A program made the translations under genes and the position numbers. The notes under the pieces were generated by a model. It had not been told where the DNA came from and searched no databases. It was given only the letters and a program-made list of their open reading frames with translations. Shown one piece after another: positions 872 through 50,403 of a stretch of DNA of 51,379 nt (positions are counted from its first letter, which is position 1; every line of letters begins with the position of its first letter). The stretch comes from a virus (Duplodnaviria; Caudoviricetes): positions 1 to 51,379 of the IMG/VR virus record IMGVR_UViG_3300020460_000021; one strand, 5' to 3'.

Positions 872-1021
872 ATTCATAAGCCTCATTTCAAGAGTAGTGG
901 ACGACTCTTCAGGCAACAGACATATAATCAAAACAAGTTATAAGAGAACTCTTTATAACCATGCAAAACAACCCTAATTGCTTAAGGGTTCTCTTTATAA
1001 CATTTTAAAAAGGAAGTACTC

Positions 1022-2925: not shown

Positions 2926-2992
2926 TGAGTGGTGATTGTTTTTATCTATTAATATTTCTTAGTCGAGGAAATATTAACCCTACAAATACCTT

Positions 2993-3238: not shown

Positions 3239-3446
3239 TGTAAATCCAAAATATTATACCAAAGGTATTGAAGTTGCAGAGTTTGTGCATTCCCACAAAT
3301 TAGGATATTTAGAAGGCAATGCTATTAAATATTTAACTCGTTGGAAACACAAACATGCAAATCCAAAACAACAAAAACTTGACTTACAAAAAGCCAAAAG
3401 AAACATCGAATTATTAATTCAATATGAAGAAAGGAAAGAAAAATGA
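3228..3446 (+). CDS. DUF3310 (T7 gp1.7-like) protein
   Basis: VNPKYY..GIE and GNAIKYLTRWKHK..DLQKA motifs. Confidence 0.85.
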   Translation: MSDDVNPKYYTKGIEVAEFVHSHKLGYLEGNAIKYLTRWKHKHANPKQQKLDLQKAKRNIELLIQYEERKEK

Positions 3447-3685
3447 GTATAGAAAAAGTATACAATATTACAGTATCATCAACATATAGTGATTTTGATT
3501 TAGAAAGATTTTTGAAATCAAAAAACATGCAAATATTTATGGGTAATGAATATATGTGTGACATTACAACTATTAAAGTACAACCCAAATTTCAAATTGT
3601 AGAAAAAGAAGAAAAAATGTCACCAGAAAAATATATTTCTAAATCATATAAAATGGTTGGTGATAGTTTAAATGACTTAAAATAA
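3443..3685 (+). CDS. Hypothetical protein
   Basis: 80-aa ORF overlapping the upstream stop. Confidence 0.65.
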   Translation: MSIEKVYNITVSSTYSDFDLERFLKSKNMQIFMGNEYMCDITTIKVQPKFQIVEKEEKMSPEKYISKSYKMVGDSLNDLK

Positions 3686-3709
3686 TCTTTAATACTTAGG
3701 GAGCATAAT

Positions 3710-3862
3710 ATGGACGAAAAATTAAAAATCTATGAACGCATGGCGAAAGCATTAATGCGAAAATGGAAACAAAAACCAGAAACTTTATATCCAGAACTTA
3801 TTCATATTTTGCAATCCCTTGGTATTGATTGGATTGAAGATAATAAAACAATAAAAAAATAA
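3710..3862 (+). CDS. Small hypothetical protein (50 aa, MDEKLKIYER...)
   Basis: Translated by hand; AGGGAG RBS upstream; below the ORF track cutoff. Confidence 0.65.
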   Translation: MDEKLKIYERMAKALMRKWKQKPETLYPELIHILQSLGIDWIEDNKTIKK

Positions 3863-3880
3863 ACATCTAGGAGGCAACAG

Positions 3881-4099
3881 ATGAGAACAAAAGAAGCAAA
3901 GCAATTTATTCAAACAAATGATATTAATAATCAAAAATGGATGTTTGAAGAAGATGCGTGTAAATACTTGAATTGCGATAGAAAAACATTAAAAAAAGCA
4001 AGAGATCTTGGCAAACTAAAATTCAGTAGGCCAGGAAAACGTAGAATATATTATAAATCTGAATGGTTAGATGAATACATTTTACAAGGAGTTAGATAA
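3881..4099 (+). CDS. Excisionase-like helix-turn-helix protein
   Basis: EEDACKYLNCDRKTL..GKLKFSRPG.RIYY..WLDEY is the Xis/HTH_17 pattern; AGGAGG RBS. Confidence 0.8.
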   Translation: MRTKEAKQFIQTNDINNQKWMFEEDACKYLNCDRKTLKKARDLGKLKFSRPGKRRIYYKSEWLDEYILQGVR

Positions 4100-4101
4100 C
4101 A

Positions 4102-4482
4102 ATGTATACAAAAGAAGAAGATATAGGTAATCATTGTGTTAGATGTAATAGAGACACATCACTTGGCTCAGGATTATTTGTAAACAGAATTCCTACACAC
4201 TGTGATTCTGAAAGTTGGTTTGAAGGAAAAAAAATCTTTGAAAAAAATCATTATCGTATTGGTTATTTATGTCTCGATTGTAGTGCAATAGAATGTGATA
4301 GATGTAATGAAATGATATCTATAGAGGAATATATAAAAGCTAACGATTTTATATGGGATGTAGATAAAAGTGTTTATTCAAAAATATTACATAAAAATCA
4401 ACATTGTTTTAAAGATGGAGCAATAGTTGTTCATTACGAATGTTTAAAACAAAATGAACAAAAAATATATGATGAGGTTTAA
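4102..4482 (+). CDS. Hypothetical Zn-binding protein
   Basis: CVRC, CLDC, CDRC and HYEC motifs. Confidence 0.7.
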   Translation: MYTKEEDIGNHCVRCNRDTSLGSGLFVNRIPTHCDSESWFEGKKIFEKNHYRIGYLCLDCSAIECDRCNEMISIEEYIKANDFIWDVDKSVYSKILHKNQHCFKDGAIVVHYECLKQNEQKIYDEV

Positions 4483-4774
4483 AAAAACAGATCATTGGGA
4501 AATGATAGGCAATATTGCCAAAACATTACAATTAAAGAAAGAGAGAAAAAATATGGACTTATCAGAATTTATAGACAAGTATTGTCAAAAAGAATATGGG
4601 CATACAAACTGGGGTTACAAAAAAAGCTATACACAAGAAGAACTTAATAGCAATAATTATGATTTAGAAAACGATATTGTATTCTGGCATAAACCTCTAG
4701 AAGATGATGAAGAATATCATCCAGATACAGAAAGAGAAATAAACGAGGAGGAAAGAAATGAGTCATCCAAGTAA
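4454..4774 (+). CDS. Hypothetical protein (true start may be MDLSEF near 4553)
   Basis: ORF in early arm with acidic C-terminus. Confidence 0.55.
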   Translation: MNKKYMMRFKKTDHWEMIGNIAKTLQLKKERKNMDLSEFIDKYCQKEYGHTNWGYKKSYTQEELNSNNYDLENDIVFWHKPLEDDEEYHPDTEREINEEERNESSK

Positions 4775-5150
4775 AGTAAAAGGCAATAGAATTGAACGTG
4801 AAATCGTAGATATATTTAAAGAATATGGTTTTACAGAAGCAAAAAGAGCATGGGGTTCTAATGGTCAATCATTAGGACTTCACGAAGAGGTCGATTGTTA
4901 TATTCCTGAAATAGATTTAAAAATTCAAAGCAAAGGAAGAAAACAAATTGCATCTTATGTTATTCCAAATATACCGATTGTTGACATACAAGTTGTAAAA
5001 GCCAACAACAAACCTTATTTGGTAATTACAGATATACATGATTATGTAAAAGACAAACAAAAAATTATAGAATTGCAAAAAGAAATTATAATGTTAGAAC
5101 AAGAAATTAACAAATTAGAAACAGATCTAGCATATACAAACTCTGTTTAA
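4758..5150 (+). CDS. Holliday junction resolvase, Hjc-like PD-(D/E)xK nuclease
   Basis: SKVKGNRIEREIV, VD, IQSK motifs; GAGGAGG RBS. Confidence 0.75.
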   Translation: MSHPSKVKGNRIEREIVDIFKEYGFTEAKRAWGSNGQSLGLHEEVDCYIPEIDLKIQSKGRKQIASYVIPNIPIVDIQVVKANNKPYLVITDIHDYVKDKQKIIELQKEIIMLEQEINKLETDLAYTNSV

Positions 5151-5151
5151 T

Positions 5152-5937
5152 TTATTTATGTTTATTCAATATTTTTCTAAAATTTCTTATTTGTCGAATC
5201 TGTTGTTCAGTATCGTTAGGTTTAGTTAAAAAAGTAGTTTTTATAACAACTTTCATGTTTGGTAAAAAACTAAATTTTCCTGCTAATTGCGTAGGAACAT
5301 TATGACCATTTTTATGTATATACACAACATCTTGTATTAATTCAAATGGTTTGCTTTGTTGACTAGATTTTATCAAATAAAACATATCAGCTATAATTAA
5401 ACCTGCTTTTCTAAACGCATTAATAGAACTTTTTTGTATAAGATTTTCTATTGGATGTGTATTCATATTATACCATTTACCAATATGCCAATAATGGTCT
5501 TCTAATTCTTTCACAGTATACCCCAAATATTGAGAACACTCCTCTTTACCTTCCACCCAATCCATTCTTCTATGTAACTTACCCATACCAGTCAATTTAA
5601 ATGAAACTTGACATACACTATGATGGTTGCTATACATTTCTTTAAATGCACTTGCAATTTTACTTTGCGGCGAATTAAGTTGAGATTTTAATTCTTTATT
5701 TTCTTCTGTTAACCTAACAATTTGTTTAATTAAATCTGCAGTTGTGTTTTGATTTGGTTTTTTTACTTCTTCGTCTTTTAAAATATTATAATATTTAGAC
5801 GGTAAAGAATTATTTTTTTTCCAACGTGAAACTGTTGCTTGTGTAACAGAAAAAAAATTAGCTATATTTTGTTGAGTAGTTGTTTCACCTATATTAGTCA
5901 AACGTTCTAATAACCTATTAAAAGTAATATTGGTCAT
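5152..5937 (-). CDS. Repressor-like protein: Cro/CI HTH + coiled coil + PAS-like domain
   Basis: TQQNIANFFSVTQATVSRWKK HTH; LIKQIVRLTEENKELKSQL coil; LGYTVKEL and YIHKNGHNVP PAS/PAC-like motifs; next to attP and int. Confidence 0.75.
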   Translation of the reverse strand: MTNITFNRLLERLTNIGETTTQQNIANFFSVTQATVSRWKKNNSLPSKYYNILKDEEVKKPNQNTTADLIKQIVRLTEENKELKSQLNSPQSKIASAFKEMYSNHHSVCQVSFKLTGMGKLHRRMDWVEGKEECSQYLGYTVKELEDHYWHIGKWYNMNTHPIENLIQKSSINAFRKAGLIIADMFYLIKSSQQSKPFELIQDVVYIHKNGHNVPTQLAGKFSFLPNMKVVIKTTFLTKPNDTEQQIRQIRNFRKILNKHK

Positions 5938-5972
5938 TATACCCCCCTTTTTTTGTGTTGTTGCTTAATCAT

Positions 5973-6001
5973 AATATACAATTTTATACATTTTTATGCA
6001 A
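5973..6001 (-). promoter_or_regulatory. Sigma70-like promoter, proximal to repressor
   Basis: TTGCAT-17 nt-TATATT on - strand, about 35 nt upstream of the ATG. Confidence 0.55.
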
Positions 6002-6049
6002 ATATCTATTATTTTATAGCTAAAAAACAACTTTTGTTGGAGGTATAAA

Positions 6050-6205
6050 AAAGAGGAATTAATTTCTCGGTGGATTCTAGGAACGGTTGCACAGAATCGA
6101 GTAAGTTTCATGGACGACGCTTGCTCGATTCTTTTTTTGTGCAAACCTAGCAACAGACACTTCCAAAAGGAAGCATGTGTATTTAGGATGTGATCCTAAA
6201 TTCTT
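6050..6205. ncRNA. Structured RNA (repressor leader or sRNA); strand uncertain
   Basis: Nested stems CTAGG/CCTAG, TTGCACA/TGTGCAA, GAATCGAGTAAG/CTTGCTCGATTC; also CTTCC/GGAAG and ATTTAGGAT/ATCCTAAAT. Confidence 0.6.
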
Positions 6206-6260
6206 GTTTTGTAACGTTTTTGTAACAAATCTTGTTATAAAGTTAACTTACTAATATACT

Positions 6261-6289
6261 ATTATAAAGCAAAAGTTTTAAAAATGCAA
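6261..6289 (-). promoter_or_regulatory. Near-consensus sigma70 promoter, distal
   Basis: TTGCAT-17 nt-TATAAT on - strand, pointing through the structured region toward the repressor. Confidence 0.65.
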
Positions 6290-6310
6290 TATTGTGCAAT
6301 CTTAAATATC

Positions 6311-6558
6311 TACCCCCCACCATTTACCCCCCACTTTTTTAACAACAAAACTCAAAAGACCCCAATAAAACTCTTAAGTCCCCTCTGAAAATATATTTAA
6401 TTAAAATTATCGAATATGGTGTTTTTAGATTTTAAGTCCACAGTGTCTACCAATTCCACCACCCGGGCATCGCATCTTTTGTCGTCAATCTTTTTATCAA
6501 AAAACTAAATAATTAAAAAATGTTAAAATACCTTTACCCCCCACTTTTTACCCCCCAC
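6311..6558. mobile_element. attP region with four integrase arm-type repeats
   Basis: TACCCCCCAC at 6311, 6325, 6535 and 6549 (two pairs, 14-nt period) flanking a tRNA fragment, just downstream of int. Confidence 0.85.
6428..6468 (-). other. attP core: 5' half of tRNA-Leu(TAA)
   Basis: - strand reads GCCCGGGTGGTGGAATTGGTAGACACTGTGGACTTAAAATC: acceptor 5' strand, D-arm and anticodon loop; then diverges, no T-arm. Confidence 0.9.
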
Positions 6559-6562
6559 CTAG

Positions 6563-7729
6563 TCAAATTTTGGGGAAAAAACCTGATTTTTTAACACTTG
6601 GAAAATCTGTTTCTAATTGGGATATATGAAATTTAGTATAACCATCAGTTGTATTAGTATTAGTATGACCTAATAATCTTGATACTAAATGAATATCTCC
6701 AGTTTCAAAATATTTTCGCACTGCAAATGTATCTCTTAAATTATGAAAACGCAAATTACTTTCATCACCTAAAACTTTTTTTACTGCTTGTTTAAATCCT
6801 TTTGATATTTTACTACGATCATTAAACTTAACGATATGATATTTTTTATCTTTTGCTTTCTTTTGAAAATCAATTAAAAAATCTTTTTGTTCTTGATTTA
6901 TAATGAACTCTCTGAATGTTTGTTTTCTTTTTGTTTCTTCCATTGGTATTTTCATCAAATAGTTTTTATTTAATGGAATAATATTAGCATAAAAAGGTTC
7001 TTTTAATCTACATCCAGTTTCAACATAAAATTTTATAACTTGTTTTAAATAGTTTGCATCATCACGAGTTTTTTTAAAACCTACAAATTCATTAAAATCA
7101 CATTGCAATATTTTTTCTAATACTGGTTCTGAAAAATACATTGGTTCTTTATCAGGTTTAGGTGGTAGTTTTATATTTGGTTTATTATTAAGATTTAAAT
7201 TCCAATCTTTAACTTTTTCAGTATAAATAAAATCAACTAAATATTTAAAATATCTAATACTATTATATGTAAAGTATTCAGAATTTTTTTTATTTACATA
7301 TTTTCTAAATCGTAAAACATCTTTATGTGAAATACTTTCAAAATTTTTGTTTTTACCTAAGCAATCTAAAAGTCTGCCTAAAATAATTGTATAACCTCGA
7401 ATAGTTTCTTTAGATGCATTTTCTGTTGTTTTATAATCCATATAATAATCAATTGCATTTTTTAAAGTAATTGTTCTTACTTTACTCACTTTATCTTCAT
7501 TGATCCATTCAAAATATGTTTTATCTATAACACCATTTAATAAATTTTTTCTTTGTTGATGTACTTTTAATGCTCTTTTTTCTGCTTGATTATGTTGTTG
7601 AATAGTTGATAAAGACATATCAACTTTTAATGGAATCATTATTTCTTTATAAGAATTATTATTTTTAGTGCGAAGCCTATAATAATACATATTCCATTTA
7701 AAATTCCAATGTTGTATTCTGCTTGGCAT
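6563..7729 (-). CDS. int: Tyrosine integrase
   Basis: TGCRLKE (R), FHNLRDTFA (HxxR), LGH...TTDGY (H, Y); SAM-like central domain. Confidence 0.95.
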   Translation of the reverse strand: MPSRIQHWNFKWNMYYYRLRTKNNNSYKEIMIPLKVDMSLSTIQQHNQAEKRALKVHQQRKNLLNGVIDKTYFEWINEDKVSKVRTITLKNAIDYYMDYKTTENASKETIRGYTIILGRLLDCLGKNKNFESISHKDVLRFRKYVNKKNSEYFTYNSIRYFKYLVDFIYTEKVKDWNLNLNNKPNIKLPPKPDKEPMYFSEPVLEKILQCDFNEFVGFKKTRDDANYLKQVIKFYVETGCRLKEPFYANIIPLNKNYLMKIPMEETKRKQTFREFIINQEQKDFLIDFQKKAKDKKYHIVKFNDRSKISKGFKQAVKKVLGDESNLRFHNLRDTFAVRKYFETGDIHLVSRLLGHTNTNTTDGYTKFHISQLETDFPSVKKSGFFPKI

Positions 7730-7748
7730 TAAGCCAAGTTTAATAAAA

Positions 7749-10700
7749 TTATTTTAAATTTTTTAAATTTTTTTGTTGTTGTATTCTTAATGGACTTATA
7801 TAATCAATATCACGCTTATCTATAAACAATTTATCTCCTGTAGCAGTCTCATAACCTCTTTTAGCTAAACCACCAACTCCTTGAAAAACACTTAAGTTAG
7901 AATAGGGATTTTTTTTAGAACCTTTAATATTCTCAGAATCATCTAAAGCTTTTAATGCTTTTCCTAATTCACTCATAATAACAATAGAAACGTCAGAACC
8001 ACCAACTCCAGTTCCAAGCCTAATCATATTATGCATTTTTTTAATTGTTTCTTCTTCGTCTTCTTCTTCATCATAATAATTTTTAAATGCTTGTGATACA
8101 AACCATGATAGAGTTGCAATAGATGTTACAATAGTAGAATATAAAGGAGATACTAATCCTTGACTTGATTTTGACATATTACTTCGACCTAACATCCATT
8201 TAATACTTCTGAAAATAGGGTTTGTTAAAAAATTACCCCAAATTGCTAAAGGAAAAAATGTACTAGCAACAGCATGAATACTAAAAAATTGCTGTTGTGC
8301 AAATCTAGAAGGATTTATATATCCCTCAACTCTTTCATTTTTAATTTGTTGTTTAGTTGGCATAAATGTTTTTTTAAAACCATAAGCAGTCATACCTACT
8401 GTACCTAATATTGCCCAAAATGGTGCACCTGCAAAAGTTGTAGTTAATGTTCCTAAACCCCATAACATAGGATTTGTTTTATTTGTCATTATATTACTAT
8501 ACATAGTTGCAAGAGTATTTTTTAAAAATCGAATTTTTTTACTTTTCTTATCTACTAAAATTTCATCATATCTAAATCTAGAATTTATACCTTGTATAGT
8601 AATTTTTAAATCTGACGCAAACTTTTGTTGCCACCAGTTTTTTAATGCATTTAAAAATCTTCCTGTAACATTTCCAAAACCTTGTCCCGCCGCCATTGGT
8701 TCTAAAGAAAATTGTACTAGATTTACATATCTTCTACCTAAAAGCGATTTTTGTTCATCAGTATATGCGTCAGACATTTTACCTGCTTTTTGATATCCAA
8801 TAATATATGATATTACTCTTAAAATTTGTTCTGTATCTTGAATAGATGGTACAATTTTATATTGATCTAATAAAGCCATAACTCTACTATCTGTTTTTTC
8901 TGTTTGTGCTCTATGAGTAATTGCATAATTAGATGCTCTAGTTAATATTCTTGATAAACCATTTGGAAATGTTTTTTTAATTCCTTTTAATGTCATTTTA
9001 AGTATTTTAATTCTTCTCTTAACTTCTTTTTTTTCTAATTTTTTCTTTCTTAAACTTTTTAATTGAATTTGTAATTCTTTAATTTGTGCTTTCATTTCTT
9101 TTGTAACTTTTTTATTAGAATGTATTTCATAAGCTCTTAATTCTTCACTTATATAACCTTCAATAAATTTAACATAAGATGTAATTCCTGCTTTTTCTGC
9201 TAATTTATTCCAATACTCAGGTTTTCTACTATATTCAAACATTGCATCTTTTGCAATATCTAATCCACTTGCAGTTATATCTTGTATATGAGAACTTAAA
9301 TTTACTAATCCATCAGAAGGGTGAATTAACAAATTAGAATAATACCCTTTATTTATATTACCCAAAAATCGTCTAAGTTTTTCTGGGGTTAAATTGTAAA
9401 AAGGAATTGTTTTATTAAAAACATCAGCTACTATTTTATCTGTAAAACGAAGTCCAAGAAAAGTAGCTTCAGCATCAATAGAATTATATTTAGTTCTAAA
9501 TAAATTTAAAGCGTATTGTTTTGCTTGAGGTACTTCTTTTGGATTTTCAATAAATAATTTTAAAAGAGAAAGAGCAACTTTATTACGATACAATGTTTCT
9601 GCAGTTGTATTCATATAATCTCGTATTACAAAATTATCTAAACGTGACTCTTCTATAGGTATAAAATGTCTTATTGATTTAAAATTCTTTAAATAATTTA
9701 ATCCATATATAGGGTCAGCTTGACCATGATGTATCCCATCATCATCAAAATCATCTATAATTTTTTTAATTGCATCTAATGATTCTGTTTTTTCGTCTAT
9801 TTCTAATTGCAACATTCTTCGTTTTGGTTGATTTTTTAAATCAACTGCATCAAGCCGAGTTATTAACGCATCAATTTGATCGGGTAAAGTAACTAAAGCT
9901 TCACTCAAATGTTTTTTTCTTATAGCAGAATCATATATAGTAGGAAAATATTTAATATCACCCATTTGGTCTACTGTTTCTTTTAATCTTACCGTATCAA
10001 TACCCTTTTTATCTACATAAAATTCATCTACATCTTGAAATTCAGGACTATTATTAGTATAAAGTTTAAATATTTCAGAAATTTGATTTTGTATTGCAGG
10101 GTCTAAATTTTGAGTTTGTTCTATTAAACGTTTATGTTCTTTAGATAATTGTTCTGACATTTTTATAACTGCTCTACCAAATGATTCTAAATTTTGTGCA
10201 ATATTAGATTTAATTTCTAAAAATTTTTCAAAATCTAATGTATTCATTACCAAAGGTGTAGCTACACCACCACTTTTTAATTCGTTTGATCTAATTTTTT
10301 TTATTTTTCCATCTTTACCTTTTACTTCTATTCTTTTCAAATCTTCTGGATGAACAATATTTTTTTTATACATTAATATAGGAGCTGTACTTGCATATGC
10401 AAATTTTGAAGTTCCATCTGCATAAGTGCCAACTTTTTTCTTACCTCTTTTTATAAAAAATTCTCCAGTTTTTACACTTATTTTAATACGATTTTGTAAA
10501 TACATATAAATAATTTGAGTAAGCGTATCTTCGTCTTCAAAATATTTGTTAAATGTATTTAAAAATTCTTCTGGAATTAATCTATTTATAACGTCGTTAA
10601 TACCTATATCATTAATATTATTTATTATTGGCGTTTTAGAACCAGTTGTAAAATTTTTTATTTTACGTTCTTTTTTTTGATTTGGTATACCTTCTGTTGA

Positions 10701-43461: not shown

Positions 43462-43730
43462 ATCTAAAGTTAAACATCCTAATTATTTTTACGTTCAAAA
43501 AAACCCGTTGTTGACTTTTACATCTGTGGGGGTTACCTTCGGTTGGACACAACCACAACAAGACCGTCCCTTTTTTTTCTACTCCCCTCTACAACTCCTT
43601 TTATAGATCCCAAAGTTTCAAAATTGTAGCATTTTGATATACGGCCTGTATTAGTACGGGTGCCCCTATGACAGAGAAATGCAAAGAGCATTTTAGTTAT
43701 TTATTAATCCAACATAAGGAGACTTTCAAT

Positions 43731-44069
43731 ATGAAAGCAAATTATCAATCAATGTATTTAACTCAATCAGCCGAAGACGGCACTTGGCTTTATACTTTAC
43801 CTAAGGTCAATCGTTCAATAGTTGATGGCCCTGTTAAAGGTCAAGTTGTTGAAGGTCGTCAACGCTATCAGCGTGATGAGGAAGGGAACTACCTTCAGAA
43901 TTCCGCTAAGTTAGAAGAGCAATCCACTTTCAAGTGGCATTATATTGTTCTTGATAGCAATTTGAATGACCTTCAAAGAGCAGATATCCTCAAGGAGGGA
44001 TATCCACCTGTTGTGGGCGTCGACGTGAACGCAGACGTTCTGACGGTCGACTGGAACTTTCTATCGTAA
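43731..44069 (+). CDS. Hypothetical protein, first gene of the early arm
   Basis: AAGGAG RBS before ATG 43731; followed by a terminator. Confidence 0.75.
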   Translation: MKANYQSMYLTQSAEDGTWLYTLPKVNRSIVDGPVKGQVVEGRQRYQRDEEGNYLQNSAKLEEQSTFKWHYIVLDSNLNDLQRADILKEGYPPVVGVDVNADVLTVDWNFLS

Positions 44070-44070
44070 G

Positions 44071-44094
44071 AAAGAAAGAAAGAAAGAAAGAAAG
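44071..44094 (+). repeat. (AAAG)6 microsatellite
   Basis: Six perfect copies between the stop codon and the terminator. Confidence 0.9.
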
Positions 44095-44117
44095 AGACAC
44101 AAGAGTGTCTCTTTTTT
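44091..44117 (+). terminator. Intrinsic terminator
   Basis: AAAGAGACAC-AAGA-GTGTCTCTTT running into a T-tract. Confidence 0.8.
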
Positions 44118-44156
44118 GATTTCCCATAAAATTTCACTAAAAAAAAGGAATTTAAA

Positions 44157-44294
44157 ATGACATACGAATTAAATATAGTTCATATAGTACAGATATTTTA
44201 CACAGGTATACTAATAGGTTCAATAATGTATGCTATACATATAAACCCTCATTTAAAGAAACAGACATCAATTAAACATCAGGATAAATCATGA
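44157..44294 (+). CDS. Small membrane peptide (45 aa)
   Basis: Translated by hand; AAGGA RBS; one TM segment; ATGA overlap with the next gene. Confidence 0.65.
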   Translation: MTYELNIVHIVQIFYTGILIGSIMYAIHINPHLKKQTSIKHQDKS

Positions 44295-44494
44295 GAGGCA
44301 GTTGGCAATGGGTAGTCTATGATGAAAACAATGAACCACATTATTTTACAGATAAAATTGAGGCATTTAAATATTATCATAATGTGGTCGATAATCTACC
44401 AAATTATAATGAATTCTGTGATGTATTAGAATATAAAAGACATCCTTCTGTTGTAAAATTTTGGAAAAGAAATAGTCTACCTGATAAATGTTAA
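44291..44494 (+). CDS. Hypothetical protein
   Basis: 67 aa; AGGA RBS. Confidence 0.65.
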   Translation: MRGSWQWVVYDENNEPHYFTDKIEAFKYYHNVVDNLPNYNEFCDVLEYKRHPSVVKFWKRNSLPDKC

Positions 44495-45394
44495 CACTTA
44501 TTTATAAGACTGACTATAAAATAGCATAGTGTTTAAAAAAGTCTAAACCATCAATTATGTGCAGGGAAATTAAGTCGCATAAAGTTTAGACAATTAATGT
44601 TCAAGCAGGAAAATAGGCAGAAGTATGGTGTAAACGTAAAGTGCGGAACACCATCACTGCTTGAATATATATAAATAAAAAAATTAAAAAAATGAAAGAG
44701 ATCATCACCTTATATGTGAATGAAGAAATAAGAAAGTTGCAAAATCTTATTTCGTTTATGGAATATATTATAAAGCACTACGATTGCCATATGGACTGTG
44801 CTAAATATATGAAATAATCATGGGTCAAATGTCATATCCCTTCAAAGTTAAGGTGCAAACTAATTTCCAAGACGTTGGTAATACAGATATGTATTAAAAT
44901 TTAATTATATAACAGCATTGTTGATCGTATGTATGGATACATTAAATTTGATTAGTCCCTGTTACACACTTCTATGCAACATACCATAAAGATGATCTCT
45001 TTCAGAATTATTTCCACAAAAACAAAAGATAGAAAAGAAGTAGTTACTACAGTTTCACTTCGCTGTTATCTTTATAAGAAAGGAACAACAGTCGAATGTC
45101 AGTTAAAATCTTGATTTATAGAATAAATAGAGACAAGCAAGTGGTCGTTGAAAATAACGATGGAATGTATAAACAATACATTTTTTGTATAACATTTGTT
45201 GAGGCTTGTAATACAAACGAAGGCCGTCTCATTGTTCATATGTAAAAGTCAACTAACAATTGTCAATACTTTTACATAATAAACAAGAAATTGCCTGTAC
45301 AGTTTATTTTAACTGAATAGCGACTTGCAGTAGTAGTAGAAATAAGTTACGATATATGTTTAGCAGGTATATCTATACCCAACCTACTACTACT
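44493..45394 (+). ncRNA. Tandem array of structured RNA domains (candidate large ncRNA)
   Basis: No ORF of 60 aa or more; about nine consecutive stem-loops, six with 8-14 bp closing stems; G-U pairs favour the + strand. Confidence 0.65.
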
Positions 45395-45425
45395 AAAATT
45401 TAAAACAAATAAGAAAGAACACATT

Positions 45426-45725
45426 ATGTATATCAATCAATTAGATGCATTTACAGAAAAAAAGAAAGATGAAGAAAAAAAATATTATATAGTACCAACC
45501 ATTACATTAATTGGAAATGATAATAATCAATTTATTGGAAGTTTTACTTCTAAAAAAAAAGCTCTTCAATCTTTGATAACTACGTCAGATAGGAATAAAA
45601 ATAAAAAACGAGGTTCAAAAAGAAAAAATATGGGTCAATATTATTATACAAATGGAACACATATCAACGCATGGGTTGATTATCAAGTTAATATAAAAGT
45701 AGTCGAAGAAAGTGAGGTGAAATAA
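45426..45725 (+). CDS. Hypothetical protein
   Basis: 99 aa; coupled to the next gene. Confidence 0.65.
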   Translation: MYINQLDAFTEKKKDEEKKYYIVPTITLIGNDNNQFIGSFTSKKKALQSLITTSDRNKNKKRGSKRKNMGQYYYTNGTHINAWVDYQVNIKVVEESEVK

Positions 45726-46084
45726 TGAAAGAAGAAATAATTGTTCAACAAACACCAACAGAATATTATGAAGAAATAATAGAAGATTTTAAAGAAGGAC
45801 ACAGAGACTATTATTTTGGTATCGAATTAAAAAAAGGTAAAATAGAAATAATTGCTCAATGGCATTCTATAGGTGGATTAGAATATGATATATTTATCGA
45901 CAAAAAAAAATTCCAAGATGGAGGTATTTTAGAAGGCGATACTTACCCTGATGAATTTTTAAACCCTGATAATGATTATTTATTTTATTATTTAGTTACA
46001 GATATTTTAAGTAATAATGAAATACAAATTTATCAAAAAAATAAAAAAAGATTAGTTTATTTAAACAAAAGCGAGGTGAAATAA
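45725..46084 (+). CDS. Hypothetical acidic protein
   Basis: 119 aa; GAGGTG RBS; TAATG coupling. Confidence 0.75.
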   Translation: MKEEIIVQQTPTEYYEEIIEDFKEGHRDYYFGIELKKGKIEIIAQWHSIGGLEYDIFIDKKKFQDGGILEGDTYPDEFLNPDNDYLFYYLVTDILSNNEIQIYQKNKKRLVYLNKSEVK

Positions 46085-46281
46085 TGAGTAAAGAAATGTT
46101 AAATAAAGTAAGTAAACAAGATTGTATGTATGCCATAAGATATTTATGGGAAGAAGGATTTGTAGAAGAAATGACTACAAATAAAAAATATTATACGACA
46201 ATATTGCTTAAAAAAGTAGCCAATTTTTATAATATAAAATTAGAAAGAGAAGATGAAAAAGAAAGGTGGCAAGATGTGTGA
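46084..46281 (+). CDS. Hypothetical protein
   Basis: 65 aa; GAGGTG RBS. Confidence 0.75.
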   Translation: MSKEMLNKVSKQDCMYAIRYLWEEGFVEEMTTNKKYYTTILLKKVANFYNIKLEREDEKERWQDV

Positions 46282-46444
46282 TTGTAAAACAACAGACAAT
46301 GACGAAAATATTTTATATATAGAACGATATGGAGAGAATGGCTCTGCTATCGAAATAGTATGTCGTGAATGTGAAAAACATATAGACATTGTAAACGTAC
46401 ATAATTATCAAGAAAGGAATTATAATGAGTACAGCACTAACTAA
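46253..46444 (+). CDS. Small Cys-containing protein (start may be MCDC near 46274)
   Basis: CDC and CREC; AGGTGG RBS before the second Met. Confidence 0.6.
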   Translation: MKKKGGKMCDCKTTDNDENILYIERYGENGSAIEIVCRECEKHIDIVNVHNYQERNYNEYSTN

Positions 46445-46988
46445 AGAAAAATATGATATTTTAAATTCAATAGGAACAAACTTATTGAGTAAATATGAAA
46501 AAGAACCTCATAAAATGTTAAATCATCTTTGTGATGAATTAAAAAAACATAATTATGTGTATAGCGAATTGCTATATGCAGGGTCTGGAGATGAAGGACA
46601 TATGTATGACTGGTATTTATATGGTGAAGAAACAACAGATAAAAAAACTGGAGAAATTATTTATCAAGAAAATTACGATTTTGATTTAATGAGTTACAGA
46701 GATGAATATACAATAAAAATTCCTACTTCACTTTATAATTGTTTTGCAGTCATAGAAGATTATTTATTGTATGAATATAATAAAGATAAAAATTCATGGT
46801 GGGGTGGAATTGTTACTCATGATTGGATTAATAATGAAGGTGGTGGTGGTACACTTAAAATCACATTTGATGATAAAAAAATAACTTCAAGTGCATATAA
46901 ATATAGACAACAAGAAGAATATTACGGAGATCAATATTTTCAAATTACACAAGATACATTAAAAGGAGTTTATGATGAAAGCGTATAA
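46425..46988 (+). CDS. DUF6878-like protein
   Basis: YAGSGDEG and DWINNEGGGGTL motifs. Confidence 0.7.
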   Translation: MSTALTKEKYDILNSIGTNLLSKYEKEPHKMLNHLCDELKKHNYVYSELLYAGSGDEGHMYDWYLYGEETTDKKTGEIIYQENYDFDLMSYRDEYTIKIPTSLYNCFAVIEDYLLYEYNKDKNSWWGGIVTHDWINNEGGGGTLKITFDDKKITSSAYKYRQQEEYYGDQYFQITQDTLKGVYDESV

Positions 46989-47319
46989 TCATGCATTATC
47001 AAGTGTCAAAAAATTTGGTGGTAAAGTAGAAGATTATATTAAAATACACGAATGGTTCGATGAATCTAAAGGATTTTATGGAGATCTAAGACATCGTGCA
47101 TTACGCCATCATACACAAGGTATTGTAGAATGTGAAAAACTATTTGGAGTTACAATAACCAATTCAAACAATAAAAAGGTTGTTGTAAAATCAATAGCAG
47201 AACAACACATTTTAGAAGACCTAGGTTTTTTACCTACAATAGAAAGTTGGTTTAAAAATATTATGCCACAAAAATGGATGAGTAGCATGAGACATCAAGT
47301 CCCCAAAAATCTAAACTAA
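46972..47319 (+). CDS. DUF6915-like protein
   Basis: HA.SS.KKFGG..EDY..IH.WFD.SK, RHRALRHH and EQH..EDLG..PT. Confidence 0.8.
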   Translation: MMKAYNHALSSVKKFGGKVEDYIKIHEWFDESKGFYGDLRHRALRHHTQGIVECEKLFGVTITNSNNKKVVVKSIAEQHILEDLGFLPTIESWFKNIMPQKWMSSMRHQVPKNLN

Positions 47320-47371
47320 CGTTTCTTTTTACCCTTTATACCTCATTTCTTTTTTTGCAATCGCAAGTTAA

Positions 47372-47400
47372 TTGTTTAATAAATCAAATATAGTTAAGTT
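47372..47400 (+). promoter_or_regulatory. Possible sigma70-like promoter for the recombination/replication genes
   Basis: TTGTTT-17 nt-TAAGTT in the intergenic gap. Confidence 0.4.
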
Positions 47401-47455
47401 CGTAGTAGCAACAGACTCTCTACGTATTTAGCTGTATTTCAACATAAGGAGTACA

Positions 47456-47659
47456 GTGATGTTAAATCATGGACAATACCAGATATTTCATACAAATACT
47501 AAAGACAGATATAGAGTTATTTTAATCGATAACAGAGTTATTGAGGTTGAGACAGACCCTTTAAGTGAAGTTTCCCCTATTTCTCAAGTTATTAAAAAAG
47601 TCGTAAAGGAAAGTGACAATGCCCAAAATACATTTAGACCAAACTATACTACAGACTAA
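47456..47659 (+). CDS. Hypothetical protein
   Basis: AAGGAG RBS. Confidence 0.65.
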   Translation: MMLNHGQYQIFHTNTKDRYRVILIDNRVIEVETDPLSEVSPISQVIKKVVKESDNAQNTFRPNYTTD

Positions 47660-47843
47660 AACAGTAGGTAAAATTTGTGATTACATAAGACATACATTGA
47701 ATTATGTAGATGTTGCAAATGAAGATGCTAGACGAGCAGTTCTTCTTGGTCAACATATCTTAGATACTCACGAAAAAGCCAATGAAAAAATATCGGTTCT
47801 AAAAACACGTTGTCATAAAAACAACGCAAAGAAGTATATATAA
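47613..47843 (+). CDS. Hypothetical protein
   Basis: 76 aa; AAGGA RBS. Confidence 0.6.
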   Translation: MTMPKIHLDQTILQTKTVGKICDYIRHTLNYVDVANEDARRAVLLGQHILDTHEKANEKISVLKTRCHKNNAKKYI

Positions 47844-48001
47844 TGGAATCGTATAAACAATTTGTTGACAGGTTGCGGGTTAATCCCCCCTTAATTAAAC
47901 CTCACGCCCCACAACCTAAGAAAATCAAGTATACCCAAGGAGGTAGCCTTGAAATATTAATTCGCAATCTCAACAAAATGATTAAAAGGAGACTTAAATG
48001 A
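47843..48001 (+). CDS. Small hypothetical protein (52 aa)
   Basis: Translated by hand; TAATG and ATGA overlaps at its two ends. Confidence 0.55.
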   Translation: MESYKQFVDRLRVNPPLIKPHAPQPKKIKYTQGGSLEILIRNLNKMIKRRLK

Positions 48002-48375
48002 ATAATACTATGTATGAAACAGTTAAAACAATAATGTTAGAAAACAGAGCATCAAGAGATAGTGATCCATTATTGTGTTTTTATTACTATCAAATGACAG
48101 ATAACAAATTTGCTCCAAGCAAAGAACCATCCATGTCAGTTAACGAATATTTTGAAAATCTTCATTATAAAAAAATGCCTACTTATTCTAGCATTTCTAG
48201 AGCAAGAAGAAAAGTTCAGGAAGACTATCCAGAATTAAGAGGTTCATTATATAGATACAAAAAAGAAAATACAAAAAACGTTAAAAAATGGGTTCATCAA
48301 ACCAAAGATAATCAACGAGATAAAAACAAATTAATAGAGGCAGGTTTAAAATATGGAAAAAAATACAGCAACTAA
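47998..48375 (+). CDS. Hypothetical phage protein
   Basis: RDSD..L and SISRARRKVQE..PELRG; AGGAG RBS. Confidence 0.75.
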   Translation: MNNTMYETVKTIMLENRASRDSDPLLCFYYYQMTDNKFAPSKEPSMSVNEYFENLHYKKMPTYSSISRARRKVQEDYPELRGSLYRYKKENTKNVKKWVHQTKDNQRDKNKLIEAGLKYGKKYSN

Positions 48376-49195
48376 TCCAAATGAACAACACCATAGAACA
48401 TTAGATCTTATTAACATTATTGATGTAGTATTAGAACAAAAAGCAGAACAAAACAACAAAGACAGAATTAAAGAATCAGAAGGCAGATATAGTGCTTCTG
48501 GTGCAGGTCTTTGTATGAGAAAACAATACTATCAAAAACATAACGCACCTAGAGATAAACATGATAAAATAGGATTGCGTACAATGCGACTTGGTACTGT
48601 ATATGGTGAAGATGTTCAAAATTGTGTGTTACAATATTTTTCTGCTTATGAAAATCTATCTTATAAATGTTATAGTGAAGAATATATATATGCAGATGAT
48701 TTGTATTCACATTCTAAAATTGGTGGACACTTTGATTTATTGATTGTTGATGAAAATAAACAAGGTTATTTGTATGATTTTAAAACTGCAAATAGTTGGA
48801 AATATAAAGGTTTATTTGGTCGCAATCGTTCTACTGCAAATCAAACAAGTAACTATGAATTACAATTAGGAACGTATGCAATGATATTAAATCATACAAA
48901 AAAATATTGTGATAAAGTTGTTCAAATGGGAAATATTTATTTCAATAAAGATAATTCCAATATGCAACAGTTACTAGCCGATGTCGATGTATATATAGAA
49001 TATGCAGATATGTATTGGCAAACACTCAATGATTATGAAAATGAAATGCCATCGATTGGTGGTAATTGCCCTACTTATGAATGGGAATGTAAAAAATATT
49101 GCAACTACAGAACAGTTTGTGATAGTCCATATATCATTCAAAAAAAATCTTCAATAGAAAATATTATTAATAAAGGAGCAGTATATGCAAAATAG
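48353..49195 (+). CDS. Cas4/AddB-like PD-(D/E)xK exonuclease
   Basis: CMRK, GHFD, DFKT, QLGTY and a C-terminal Cys cluster. Confidence 0.85.
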   Translation: MEKNTATNPNEQHHRTLDLINIIDVVLEQKAEQNNKDRIKESEGRYSASGAGLCMRKQYYQKHNAPRDKHDKIGLRTMRLGTVYGEDVQNCVLQYFSAYENLSYKCYSEEYIYADDLYSHSKIGGHFDLLIVDENKQGYLYDFKTANSWKYKGLFGRNRSTANQTSNYELQLGTYAMILNHTKKYCDKVVQMGNIYFNKDNSNMQQLLADVDVYIEYADMYWQTLNDYENEMPSIGGNCPTYEWECKKYCNYRTVCDSPYIIQKKSSIENIINKGAVYAK

Positions 49196-49865
49196 CGGTT
49201 TAGAAAAATTAAATAGCAGTGATTATATGATGCATTTTAATGAAATTGCATTATCTATCACTAAAAAACATGATGAAGTTAGCAACATAGAAACCCCTCG
49301 TGCATTTGTAAAAAGCAAAGCAGGTATGGATTATGTTGATTTAGCTTACATGAGAAAACTTGCTGATAAATATTACCCAGGATGGAGTTGGGAAAAAGCA
49401 GGTTTTCAAATATTAGGTGACCAAGAAGTTATTGTTGAAGGTCATCTAATATGGTTTGACAATGGTGTGAAACGCAAAGGATATTCTTGTGCATCACATA
49501 GAATTGCAAAATCAAGAGAAACAGGTAATTACGTAGACATATCAAACAATATCAAAGCGGCGAATACAGATGCAATGAAAAAAGCATTCAATACGTTTAT
49601 GAATATTGCTGATGACGTATATAAAAAACGTGTTATTGAACCTCTTGCAAAAACACTTGTTGCAGAGTTTCAAACATTGATACAAAAAGCCGAAACACTC
49701 GGTGTGTCTAGAGATACCGTTGCTCGATTTAAAAATGGTTTGTTGAACCACAAAATCAATACAGATAATTATGATGGTCTGTATAAACAACTAGATACAA
49801 TGATACAAGAAAAAACAAAGAAAAAAACAGTTAAAAAGGAGAAAGTAAATGTCAGTTCTGTTTGA
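49185..49865 (+). CDS. Rad52/Sak-like single-strand annealing protein
   Basis: DYV....M...AD..YPGWSWE and KAA.TDAMKKA; next to the exonuclease and SSB. Confidence 0.75.
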   Translation: MQNSGLEKLNSSDYMMHFNEIALSITKKHDEVSNIETPRAFVKSKAGMDYVDLAYMRKLADKYYPGWSWEKAGFQILGDQEVIVEGHLIWFDNGVKRKGYSCASHRIAKSRETGNYVDISNNIKAANTDAMKKAFNTFMNIADDVYKKRVIEPLAKTLVAEFQTLIQKAETLGVSRDTVARFKNGLLNHKINTDNYDGLYKQLDTMIQEKTKKKTVKKEKVNVSSV

Positions 49866-50403
49866 TCCAACCGCAATATCAAGTGAAAAGAAAACATTCA
49901 AACCGTTACCAGAAGGTACATATGCTTGTAATGTTTTAGAATTCCAAGAATCAAAAGTAGACTTAACTACAAAAACAGGTAATGTTATAGACATTATCAA
50001 ACCTGTATTACAAGTCAATGGTGATAAACATGAAGATTTTGCAAATCAAAGAATATTTGCAAACGTATTTATTACTAAAAATACAATTACAGAGAAAGGT
50101 ACACAACCCCCTACCGAGCGAGATAATCAATCTCTTTATTACTTTTTAGATTCTGTCAACTATCCAATGGAAACAGAAGAAGTAGTTGTAGAAGGTACTA
50201 AAAAAAATGCAATTGTATTACCAACAGCAGACGATGAAATAATCAAAGCGGATATTGTCGGTAAACCTGTTATGGTAACTACAAGAAATAAAGAGTATGA
50301 AAAAAAAGATGGAACTATAGGTACTGATACTCAAGTAAGAATGTGGATGAAATGGGAAAATGGAGAGGCCATCGAATCAGAAGATTCAGACCTCCCATTC
50401 TAG
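49849..50403 (+). CDS. Single-stranded DNA-binding protein (DUF669-like)
   Basis: FKPLPEGTY N-terminus, IVGKPV, acidic tail DSDLPF. Confidence 0.75.
   Translation: MSVLFDPTAISSEKKTFKPLPEGTYACNVLEFQESKVDLTTKTGNVIDIIKPVLQVNGDKHEDFANQRIFANVFITKNTITEKGTQPPTERDNQSLYYFLDSVNYPMETEEVVVEGTKKNAIVLPTADDEIIKADIVGKPVMVTTRNKEYEKKDGTIGTDTQVRMWMKWENGEAIESEDSDLPF

Follow-up and report, generated by a model that had tools for sequence, protein, structure and literature searches.

What does a densely coded phage genome keep in its longest part without genes? This question is raised by positions 44493-45394 (the stretch) of the virus record IMGVR_UViG_3300020460_000021, whose whole length of 51,379 nt is the window analysed here. 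A sequence-only reading had described the stretch as tiled by the closing stems of successive hairpin units, and had taken it for a large non-coding RNA or a polycistron of small RNAs.

The gene-free stretch and its genome setting

With ORFs of at least 50 or at least 60 aa counted on both strands, the largest ORF-free gap in the genome is located at 44495-45425 (931 nt), which bears out what had been read from the sequence. The runner-up, at 6154-6562, has 409 nt. Each of the six frames of the stretch contains 16-26 stop codons. TAA, TAG and TGA are all present and close every frame, which excludes stop-codon reassignment as a means of opening one. The stretch is thereby supported as non-coding for any long protein.

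The uncultured marine phage carries an integrase gene and is probably temperate. The genes flanking the stretch are all on the + strand, and their module continues to exonuclease, SSB, helicase and RusA-like genes. This course toward replication and recombination genes agrees with the earlier placement in the early region, "early" being a term suggested by gene order only. The DnaB-type helicase, the SSB and the RusA-like protein suggest a bacterial host. The cumulative GC-skew minimum and the strand switch lie ~1 kb from the stretch. The skew of A over T is retained, and the + strand is A-rich with common A-runs. A (GAAA)7 repeat precedes the terminator hairpin of the first + strand gene (Table 1). 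No sigma-70-like promoter stands out, and promoter-like sites number 57, as expected by chance (60 +/- 8 in shuffles).

A search with the terminase large subunit (TerL) finds more than 599 related stretches in IMG/VR, while TerL identity to cultured phages is at most 26%. DNA similarity to 50,697 phage records gave no match. Used as protein anchors, the flanking 99-aa and 119-aa ORFs have no relatives in IMG/VR, and the sole match of the 67-aa ORF there is a contig (L096) that ends at the start of the ORF. The product of the first + strand gene has no usable match in the ESM Atlas. A TerL scan of a genome collection identified three MAG contigs, labelled Poseidoniales (71% identity), Dehalococcoidia (59%) and Methanosarcinales (57%). 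These three contain nothing like the stretch (best E-value 0.012 over 24 nt), and no host is assigned from their labels because the binning of phage contigs is unreliable.

Fold statistics and the hairpin units

The global fold of the stretch has an energy of -204.4 kcal/mol on the + strand, compared to -162.8 +/- 6.5 for its shuffles (z -6.44), and -203.1 kcal/mol on the - strand (z -6.11). On either strand, none of 20 shuffles folds as well. For comparison, nine control windows of 902 nt elsewhere in the genome, each folded on the strand of its genes and set against 12 shuffles, have z scores of -3.17, -1.47, +0.32, +0.47, +0.58, -0.67, -1.44, -2.40 and -3.38. The background of the genome is not zero, yet the stretch surpasses all nine windows, so that the folding check put forward with the earlier reading comes out far above background on both strands. 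The genome has 23 perfect inverted repeats that are 11 nt or longer and fall within 400 nt, and the stretch, 1.8% of the genome, contains 4 of them. Short hairpins (perfect stem of 8 or more, span up to 90) occupy 8 rows at 7 places, compared to 1.8 +/- 1.4 in shuffles of the stretch itself, and a count of 8 was reached only once in 300 shuffles.

In the ensemble of 44450-45440 on the + strand, six stems have mean pair probabilities of 0.93-0.99 (44541/44591, 44597/44668, 44693/45004, 45025/45073, 45239/45278 and 45329/45394). The stem sequences listed in the earlier reading were all found in place, and the stretch mostly holds as a real chain of RNA-type hairpins. The tiling itself is borne out for seven robust stems. 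On the other hand, the first proposed stem-loop (unit 1) is at chance both by z score and by pair probability, and is probably not a structural unit. The "weaker unit" at 45284-45327 (unit 8) makes better sense within a larger domain that encloses it than as a separate element. A search for a sequence repeat common to the units found none within the stretch, in agreement with the earlier remark that they share no obvious sequence.

Table 1. Positions and fold statistics of features in and near the stretch (values for + strand / - strand; shuffles as good out of 300)
Feature	Position	Strand	Description	Energy (kcal/mol)	z	Shuffles as good	Pair probability
Terminator hairpin + T6	44091-44120	+	Canonical; 3' of first + strand gene; outside the stretch		-5.7 (+)
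Unit 1	44493-44533		AACACT/AGTGTT		-0.4 / -0.6	92 / 73	0.00 (in context)
Unit 2	44541-44591		8-bp perfect stem GTCTAAAC/GTTTAGAC		-2.7 / -2.9	3 / 1	0.99 / 0.89
Unit 3	44597-44668	+	12-pair stem with one G-U on +; inner 6-bp helix	-24.3 / -18.0	-5.3 / -3.9	0 / 0
41-aa ORF	44692-44817	+	Begins at core closing stem
Core unit	44693-45004		14-bp perfect closing stem (44693-44706 / 44991-45004) around 284 nt				0.98 / 0.95
RNA-library stretch	44693-45026		Contigs of two metatranscriptome runs, one study
Hairpin within core	44725-44753		9 bp		-4.1 / -6.3
Unit 5	45025-45073	+	Stem AAAGATAG/TTATCTTT, one G-U on +	-10.8 / -7.5	-2.2 / -0.9		0.93 / 0.14
Larger domain	45090-45325		Imperfect 20-nt closing stem with 11-bp perfect core (45099-45109 / 45306-45316); contains units 6, 7 and 8				0.94 / 0.84
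49-aa ORF	45096-45245	+	Coincides with unit 6; candidate coding
Unit 6	45121-45237		Multibranch	-29.0 / -20.5	-3.8 / -2.5
Unit 7	45239-45278		11-bp perfect stem		-3.3 / -4.7		0.98 / 0.94
Unit 9	45329-45394		11-bp perfect stem AGTAGTAGTAG/CTACTACTACT		-3.9 / -3.6		0.99 / 0.99

The core unit is closed by the longest stem, as had been proposed, and its 14-mer is the sole inverted repeat of that length in the genome. Its pairing is well predicted on both strands, but its length is not rare in itself, as 32 of 100 whole-genome shuffles contain a perfect inverted repeat of at least 14 nt within 400 nt. Folded alone, the core unit (318 nt) has z scores of -2.8 (+) and -3.2 (-). Its interior is only modestly structured, and much of the z score of about -3 comes from the closing stem. 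The sequence A7TTA7 is located directly 5' of the core on the + strand (T7AAT7 directly 3' on the - strand), and an A6 run is located likewise directly 5' of unit 2 (T6 directly 3' on the - strand). No further copies of the core were found in the window (at most 2 mismatches) or in IMG/VR. A MITE or other mobile element was considered for the core and rejected, since the 14-bp terminal inverted repeat is present but neither additional copies nor flanking duplications are.

Strain variants, RNA libraries and the choice of strand

The nearest relative, L003, has a TerL that is 99% identical. At the place of units 1-3 it carries an unrelated 63-nt hairpin (13-bp stem, z -6.5, 0/300 shuffles as good), and units 2 and 3 are absent. 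The two sequences realign at the start of the core, at ~85-90% identity. In the closing stem of L003, G44701 is opposite T44996, a wobble pair only on the + strand.

Inside the core, the hairpin at 44725-44753 differs among strains. In a variant from the DNA run X3, 44731 A>G together with 44747 T>C turns an A-U pair into G-C, and 44733 A>T together with 44745 T>G turns an A-U pair into U-G on the + strand, where alone it is a wobble. The loop is also altered in X3, and L003 has the 44733/44745 change only. Judged from three haplotypes of this one hairpin, its pairing has been kept through two-sided changes. With the first + strand gene as anchor, a metagenome scan yielded a near-identical contig (L085), with 10 differences over 6055 nt and a single one within the stretch, as well as two distant contigs, and these three offer too little variation for covariation statistics.

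In relatives whose TerL is 73-79% identical, this position is filled with tightly packed small ORFs and shows no such gap. In a blastn comparison (word size 7) with 80 TerL-related IMG/VR loci (858 kb), the stretch matched only L003, and only in part. IMG/VR scans with four core-unit patterns returned L003 alone, or nothing. Several relatives contain ORF-free gaps of 260-570 nt, and those of six loci (L035, L036, L053, L057, L058 and L070) are related to one another as a non-coding family, located upstream of the terminase side, but none of these gaps resembles the stretch. In the collections searched, the stretch was therefore found only in near-identical strains of this phage lineage.

The variants bear on the two small ORFs inside the stretch. 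The 41-aa ORF is broken by a stop after 17 codons in L003 and by a 1-nt insertion behind 44737 in the X3 variant, and two models give it coding scores of -0.11 and -0.02 per codon, compared to 0.18-0.50 for neighbouring genes. By these comparisons it is not a conserved gene. The stretch could still be partly coding: it may encode a very small orphan early protein, or several of them, set apart by intergenic hairpins, and the chief candidate is the 49-aa ORF. AAGGAA is located ~10 nt upstream of this ORF, the gene caller of the source record predicted it (a protein cluster exists), the neighbouring true early genes are likewise orphans in IMG/VR, and relatives occupy the position with small ORFs. 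However, a protein search with it returned one candidate, the ORF itself, and its coding score is 0.04-0.14 per codon, below the range of the flanking genes. Its only variant, the L085 difference at 45171 (A>G), is non-synonymous (K26E) and falls in a hairpin loop. Even with a real 49-aa gene, ~780 of the 931 nt would be non-coding. We regard a coding stretch as quite unlikely.

Parts of the stretch are present in RNA libraries. Two seawater metatranscriptome runs contain the core in assembled contigs, which carry no strand, ends or level. That of run X15 (238 million letters) has 299 nt at a depth of 20.3 and spans 44693-44989 with no differences, and that of run X16 has 314 nt at a depth of 5.8 and spans 44713-45026 with 2 differences. 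Metatranscriptome mapping had been suggested earlier as a check for discrete ends; at the level of contigs, the RNA libraries show the presence of the core. Carry-over of DNA is an unlikely source of a depth of 20, because the phage reaches a depth of only ~3-9 in the DNA run X3 (373 million letters). The X3 DNA contig breaks at 44701-44996, almost where the RNA contigs break, and the ends of the latter therefore probably mark strain divergence rather than RNA ends. Within 43500-46499, coverage in the two RNA runs is confined to 44693-45026, which is no proof that the flanks are silent because the strains in the samples may differ there. Two other RNA-run records have matches of 36 nt with 5 differences inside unlike sequence, and were rejected as not from this phage. 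Four further RNA runs from three other studies (X17-X20) share only a few words with it (shares of 0.05-0.06) and were given no weight, while DNA runs of 11 studies contain the stretch.

These data also bear on whether the stretch has any role at all. It could be a functionless spacer, left over from early genes that an AT-rich genome has lost, and its hairpins would then be inconsequential. Its lineage-specific occurrence would agree with this, as would the control windows that reach z -3.4 and the frequency of 14-mer inverted repeats in shuffled genomes. On the other hand, inverted repeats and fold energy show a strong local excess, a hairpin has been replaced in L003 by another hairpin and not by random sequence, pairing has been kept through change, and RNA accumulates. 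A mere spacer is therefore highly unlikely.

A DNA-level element is another reading: an origin, a packaging or injection signal, or a recombination hotspot, with cruciforms or protein sites and incidental transcription. Both strands fold equally well overall, the strand switch and GC-skew minimum are close by, replication and recombination genes follow downstream, and strains exchange modules here. However, the stretch contains no iterons and no tandem or direct repeats except the A-run at 44673-44697. DnaA-box-like sites are absent from it, and their number in the genome is not above chance (12, compared to 20 +/- 5 expected). A replication origin was rejected on these features. Moreover, several stems contain G-T wobbles, which RNA tolerates and DNA does not, and the core is enriched in RNA libraries. 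We consider such an element very unlikely.

The choice of strand is less clear, and we lean toward the + strand. All flanking genes lie on it, the skew of A over T is retained, and unit 5 forms on this strand only (pair probability 0.93, compared to 0.14 on the - strand). In unit-by-unit folds it is better in 4 of 8 cases (units 3, 5, 6 and 8) and the - strand in 3, with one tie, and the sums are -115 (+) and -102 (-) kcal/mol. The two wobble pairs of the variants described above exist only on this strand. The earlier argument that G-U pairs favour the + strand fails, as there are 25 of them in each MFE structure and the two energies differ by 1.3 kcal/mol.

A possible, though on balance unlikely, alternative places one or more small RNAs on the - strand, antisense to the rightward early transcript and comparable to an OOP- or c4-like antisense or immunity RNA in a lysogen. 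Its terminators would be the core stem with U7AAU7, unit 2 with U6 and unit 5 with UGUUUUUG. T5-T7 runs follow these three stems on the - strand and no stem on the + strand, and the replacement hairpin of L003, read on the - strand, is followed by TTTTATATTT. The - strand is also more stable at 45001-45450 (z -5.1 and -5.6 in 300-nt windows, compared to -2.8 and -3.2 on the + strand), and units 7 and 9 count as better on it. In the X16 RNA contig, 44994 G>A gives C-A on the + strand but retains a wobble (G-U) on the - strand. The integrase makes expression from a prophage conceivable, and phage antisense RNAs of such a kind are described in PMC12197685. However, the T-runs may be compositional, given an A-rich + strand, and 45026-45640 contains no promoter-like site on the - strand. 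In addition, units 3, 5 and 6 clearly fold better on the + strand, and a "hairpin" of 312 nt is no canonical terminator.

Reading of the locus and comparison with known systems

The reading that we favour, with a probability of about 0.45, is that the stretch is a transcribed, strain-variable array of hairpins with a core RNA of ~310-335 nt, and not one conserved giant RNA. The earlier proposal is supported in part. A chain of separate modules fits better, while a single conserved large RNA is unsupported in view of the swap in L003, the relatives without a gap and the lack of another copy in the IMG/VR scans. In the array, the core at 44693-45026 would be surrounded by hairpin modules, seven or eight in number, that fold independently. 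We infer a rightward transcript, which would run over the 45-aa and 67-aa genes, enter the stretch, and fold co-transcriptionally into local stem-loops. The perfect stems of 11-14 bp may block exonucleases and offer processing sites to RNases specific for double strands. In such a transcript they would not be terminators, because U-tracts are lacking on the + strand. Processing would leave stable fragments, and the core would be the fragment seen in the RNA libraries. As the modules are self-contained hairpins, recombination could swap them between strains harmlessly, which would make the region hypervariable.

Candidate roles of the core RNA are a regulator of the phage's own early genes, an immunity RNA, or a decoy. 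Pairing in trans with the 50 translation-start regions of the phage was rejected, since the best duplexes (-27.3 and -30.6 kcal/mol) do not exceed the best-of-all null (-30.8 +/- 2.6 and -31.7 +/- 3.2). A more far-reaching version of our reading, which we consider a long shot, makes the stretch a new phage RNA locus. Interchangeable structured modules would surround a stable core of ~300 nt derived from an early leader, possibly in the prophage, and diversifying selection would swap the hairpin cassettes, for example as decoys for host defences that sense RNA, or as RNA-based immunity or exclusion between competing strains.

The non-coding RNAs of phages are still incompletely known, and those of uncultured marine phages in particular. 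The stretch brings together an uncommon trio: a tightly packed genome has here its largest part without genes, one unit has been traced in environmental RNA, and strains that occur together exchange hairpin modules. Should the core RNA act as a regulator or decoy, it would give access to the control of lysogeny or the evasion of defences in a group of phages that is very widespread. If it is only a processed leader, the stretch would be an ordinary, though unusually long, case of RNA structure between genes. For now, restriction to one lineage limits its general importance.

The sequence-only reading had recognised no known RNA family, and this stands. A cmscan of the whole window with the 4227 models of Rfam 15 gave no match at the gathering cut-off. 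This set includes the GOLLD, ROOL, HEARO, OLE and IMES RNAs as well as ribozymes, introns, 6S, RNase P and tmRNA. A permissive scan of 43900-45600 returned 12 weak matches, the best of them (20.9 bits, cut-off 45) outside the stretch, and ARAGORN found no tRNA or tmRNA genes in the 51,379 nt.

Among large RNAs, GOLLD and ROOL are phage and prophage non-coding RNAs with extensive base pairing and of unknown function, often next to tRNA islands, according to PMC12286853. The stretch is likewise large, non-coding, highly base-paired and phage-borne. A single multi-domain "ornate" RNA of ~900 nt of this kind would account for the size, the phage location, the nested domains with long stems, and the strong global z score. 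In contrast to those RNAs, the stretch has no Rfam match and no tRNA island. It is not conserved beyond near-identical strains, in L003 an unrelated hairpin takes the place of its 5' third, and there is no evidence of pseudoknots or tertiary motifs. A covarying structure shared over distant members, as in GOLLD and ROOL, was sought and rejected, with no homologue in the 80 loci or the IMG/VR scans. The RNA contigs moreover contain the core only and not the whole, a weak point in that their ends probably reflect strain divergence. One ornate RNA is scarcely probable.

The regulatory RNAs of temperate phages, to which the P4 CI RNA also belongs, are mostly smaller. PMC12197685 describes lambda OOP, P1 c4, phi24B 24B_1 and VP882 VpdS as short stable RNAs from early or immunity regions. 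Most of these RNAs have ~25-80 nt. The core RNA similarly comes from the early side of an integrase-bearing phage. However, it has ~300 nt, and its duplexes with candidate targets are no better than those of the shuffled unit. Table S1 of the same paper contains 38 phage sRNAs without a function, which might include comparable cases.

In T4-type phages, promoter-early stem-loops (PeSLs) are located in hypervariable regions of orphan early genes, at the borders of swapped modules, according to PMC2839356. The stem-loops of the stretch also sit where modules swap between close strains. However, PeSLs are copies of one conserved motif in which a sigma-70-like promoter is joined to a terminator stem-loop, while the units of the stretch share no sequence. 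A PeSL-type cassette was rejected on this ground and on the chance-level number of promoter-like sites.

Like intrinsic terminators, of which the genome has a canonical one at 44091-44120, the stretch has stable hairpins. However, none of its stems runs into a U-tract on the + strand (on the - strand three do), and the loops have 18-284 nt, compared to the usual 3-8. A terminator scan of 44493-45394 found none on either strand, and an array of intrinsic terminators was rejected.

The early genes of T7 have hairpins that are processed by RNase III, each separating two genes. In the stretch, seven or eight hairpins instead follow one another without genes between them. By analogy, the stretch would resemble T7 in that an early polycistronic transcript carries long hairpins in succession, at which the RNA may be cut or stabilised rather than terminated.

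Genomic setting

The 51,379-nt IMG/VR record represents a whole virus, with a completeness rating of 100% and a G+C content of about 30%, and its genes are arranged in two divergent modules (see table). The integrase gene in the window suggests that the phage is temperate. TerL relatives are encoded by more than 599 IMG/VR stretches; among the best 80 of these, one (locus L003) is 99% identical and all others are at most 80% identical, while identity to any cultured phage is at most 26%. Three further relatives (L086, L087 and L088, TerL 71%, 59% and 57% identical) are contigs in MAGs labelled Poseidoniales, Dehalococcoidia and Methanosarcinales, respectively. The DnaB, SSB and RusA-like genes of the phage group look bacterial. 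The two giant proteins are without a PHROG family match.

Coordinates of the features, in the window unless a locus is named
Feature	Position	Strand	Remarks
strand gene module	5152-43461	-	small and large terminase, portal, integrase, HTH protein, giant proteins
HTH protein	5152-5937	-
Integrase	6563-7729	-
Giant protein, 1221 aa	7749-11414	-
Giant protein, 2765 aa	11402-19699	-
+ strand gene module	43668 through record end to 5150	+	many small orphans; also DUF6915, Cas4-like exonuclease, SSB, DnaB-like helicase, RusA-like resolvase
Region with invariant block	43531-43745		around a AAAAATTGTAGCATTTTGATAT-like sequence
133-aa ORF	43668-44069	+	probable true start ATG 43731 (112 aa), AAGGAG ahead
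(GAAA)7 microsatellite	44068-44095		between stop codon of first + gene and its terminator hairpin
Canonical terminator	44091-44120
45-aa ORF	44157-44294		directly upstream of the stretch
Largest ORF-free gap	44495-45425		931 nt
Units 1, 2, 3	44493-44533, 44541-44591, 44597-44668
Core unit (4)	44693-45004		closed by 14-bp stem
Units 5, 6, 7	45025-45073, 45121-45237, 45239-45278		6, multibranch
Units 8, 9	45284-45327, 45329-45394
49-aa ORF	45096-45245		coincides with multibranch unit; possible ribosome binding site
Second largest ORF-free gap	6154-6562		409 nt; adjoins integrase gene
24-nt direct repeat	~6311-6334 and 6535-6558		near integrase
ORF-free block, L053	1154-1527
ORF-free block, L057	8207-8494
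ORF-free block, L058	8255-8655
ORF-free block, L035	3254-3645
ORF-free block, L036	3521-3912
ORF-free block, L070	3880-4272

The stretch (44493-45394) is located 0.8-1.7 kb inside the + strand module, after the conserved first + gene, its terminator, and ORFs of 45 and 67 aa. Apart from L003, the six relatives compared, all of them more distant, have stops that close the frame of the first gene upstream of ATG 43731, and the DNA there is strongly conserved despite this closure. The invariant block, lying about 100 nt 5' of the start of this gene, is likely an early promoter or operator region, situated where the two modules diverge. The GAAA repeat has 12 additional bases (three extra units) in L003, and is therefore length-polymorphic between strains. 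The 45-aa ORF, 91% identical in L003, encodes a small membrane protein with a single hydrophobic helix and a tail of basic character, and is conserved despite a low coding score. Near the integrase, the region 6001-6562, with a fold z score of -6.2 at 6001-6300, is a candidate attachment site region.

Non-coding nature and excess structure

The stretch is non-coding. The gap it fills is the longest in this dense genome to lack ORFs of at least 50 or 60 aa, as the sequence-only reading had noticed, and the next gap is less than half as long. Stop codons of all three kinds number 16-26 per frame in all six frames. The ORFs inside the stretch have coding scores of -0.11 to +0.14 per codon, compared to 0.18-0.50 for the neighboring genes, with low scores also found for two accepted small ORFs outside. 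A 41-aa ORF, whose start falls exactly on the 14-bp core stem, retains 17 codons in L003, and a variant contig from DNA run X3 carries a frameshift in it. The 49-aa ORF finds no relative except itself among 5.8 billion protein clusters, and is rather unlikely to be coding; if it were, the picture for the other ~780 nt would be unchanged. That part of the stretch encodes small orphan proteins is quite unlikely.

The folding energy of the 902-nt stretch is -204.4 kcal/mol for the + strand (z -6.44) and -203.1 kcal/mol for the - strand (z -6.11), with none of 20 shuffles as good in either case. The background of this genome is not neutral, as 67 windows of 300 nt (1-10,200) have a mean z of -0.9 (sd 1.45), and eight are below -2.5. 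Nine control windows of 902 nt elsewhere range from +0.58 to -3.38, none of them as extreme as the stretch. Of the 23 perfect inverted repeats (at least 11 nt long, within a span of 400 nt) that the genome carries, four are located here. Short perfect hairpins number eight, versus 1.8 ± 1.4 in shuffles, of which 1 in 300 reached that count. A functionless spacer is highly improbable.

The feature is real, partly as first described. All the stems listed by the sequence-only reading are present, and six of its closing stems, together with a 45099/45316 stem, have pair probabilities of 0.93-0.99 in the + strand ensemble. Unit 1, however, is at chance as a stem-loop domain, and the 14-bp stem is not remarkable in isolation, because an inverted repeat of that length occurs in 32 of 100 genome shuffles. 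In 300-nt windows the excess is concentrated at 44401-44850 and 45001-45600, and the interior of the core has z near zero.

RNA presence and strain variation

Parts of 44100-45500 are found in 20 public runs, six of them RNA libraries. Two RNA runs of one study (X15 and X16) and two DNA runs (X3 and X4) were compared over 43500-46499 through their contigs, which are strand-blind. True matches in the RNA runs are limited to two contigs, one of 299 nt from X15 (44693-44989, depth 20.3, no differences) and one of 314 nt from X16 (44713-45026, depth 5.8, with 44814 A>G and 44994 G>A), jointly spanning the core unit. DNA carry-over is an unlikely source, because the depth of 20.3 in X15 (238 million letters) compares with roughly 3-9 in the X3 metagenome (373 million). 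The break points of a DNA contig from X3 (44701-44996) nearly coincide with these ends, so the RNA contigs probably stop at graph branch points caused by strain divergence; the depth of this DNA contig, 8.95, is about the sum of two strain types with differing flanks. The missing flank cover in the RNA runs says nothing on flank expression.

Among the 80 related loci, the stretch is found at the DNA level only in L003. This locus is 92.6% identical to the window as far as 44413, departs from it within the last part of the 67-aa gene, and realigns from 44669 at ~85-90% until its contig ends near 44830. In place of units 1-3 it has an unrelated 63-nt hairpin (13-bp perfect stem, -24.2 kcal/mol, z -6.5), and thus one hairpin cassette has been swapped for another. 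A metagenome contig (L085) is 99.8% identical over 44012-50066, its single difference in the stretch (45171 A>G) being in a hairpin loop. L010 and L084 (TerL 73-79% identity) have tightly packed small ORFs at this position, with z near 0, and structure only directly after the first gene. The array is therefore specific to one lineage.

In L084, the 300-450 nt after the first-gene homologue are strongly structured (6301-6750, z -4.5 and -2.8), with ordinary small ORFs next. X3 contigs of another strain have unlike sequence joined directly before 44286 (67-aa gene start) and before 45447 (21 nt into a 99-aa gene), which makes each border of the region a recombination breakpoint among strains that occur together. 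Several more distant relatives have ORF-free blocks of 290-400 nt upstream of their terminase side. The blocks are related to each other (up to 79% identity over 364 nt) but not to the stretch, and form a non-coding element conserved in the phage group.

Relative to the window, the X3 contig has 11 differing positions and one insertion, nine of these in 44731-44747, the top of a 9-bp hairpin (44725-33/44745-53, pair probabilities 0.87-1.0). Its loop is replaced, pair 44731-44747 changes from A-U to G-C, and pair 44733-44745 from A-U to U-G, which is paired on the + strand only. L003 has the second change alone, so the helix is kept in all three haplotypes. The 44701 A>G change in L003 would form a G-U pair with 44996 on the + strand, the partner being beyond its contig. 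Two other changes, 44814 and 44827, are at unpaired positions. This pattern is suggestive of kept structure, not statistical evidence for it.

A transcript on the + strand is somewhat favored. All neighboring genes point that way, units 3, 5, 6 and 8 favor it by fold, unit 5 forms only there, and the two wobble changes and a maintained A-over-T skew agree. The - strand is favored by units 7 and 9 and the windows at 45001-45450, by T5-T7 runs that immediately follow unit 2, the core stem and unit 5 (none on the + strand), and by 44994 G>A in X16, which gives C-A on + and G-U on -, with the partner outside the contig. Antisense RNAs from the - strand are unlikely. The proposed + strand preference of G-U pairs is globally absent (25 each way) and weak unit by unit.

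Proposed mechanism and relation to known systems

Beyond the established non-coding nature, excess structure, RNA presence, module swap and kept pairing, we infer a transcribed modular hairpin array on a rightward early transcript (probability about 0.45). Its long stems without U-tracts would be processing or stability elements, processing would leave a stable core RNA of ~310-335 nt, and the self-contained hairpins would allow recombination to swap modules between strains. No RNA target emerged from a scan of the translation starts of the phage itself. An origin or other DNA-level element is very unlikely, the stretch having no iterons and no DnaA boxes.

The array is a transcribed non-coding stretch rich in hairpins, restricted to one lineage and containing a core RNA; in kind it is a phage non-coding RNA or structured early leader. 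As first noted, it belongs to no known RNA family, and its conservation is too narrow for a claim to a new class. T7 RNase III sites and the P4 CI RNA are further comparison cases.

A single giant RNA is the least probable reading: in size and phage location the array resembles GOLLD and ROOL (PMC12286853), but it has no model match, tRNA neighborhood or conserved architecture. Without a common promoter-terminator motif, and with strand, ends and target undefined, it belongs to neither of the two groups that are closest in working: the small, stable RNAs made by temperate phages, such as OOP, c4, 24B_1 and VpdS (PMC12197685), and the PeSLs, stem-loop cassettes found at the borders of shuffled modules in the hyperplastic regions of T4-type phages (PMC2839356).
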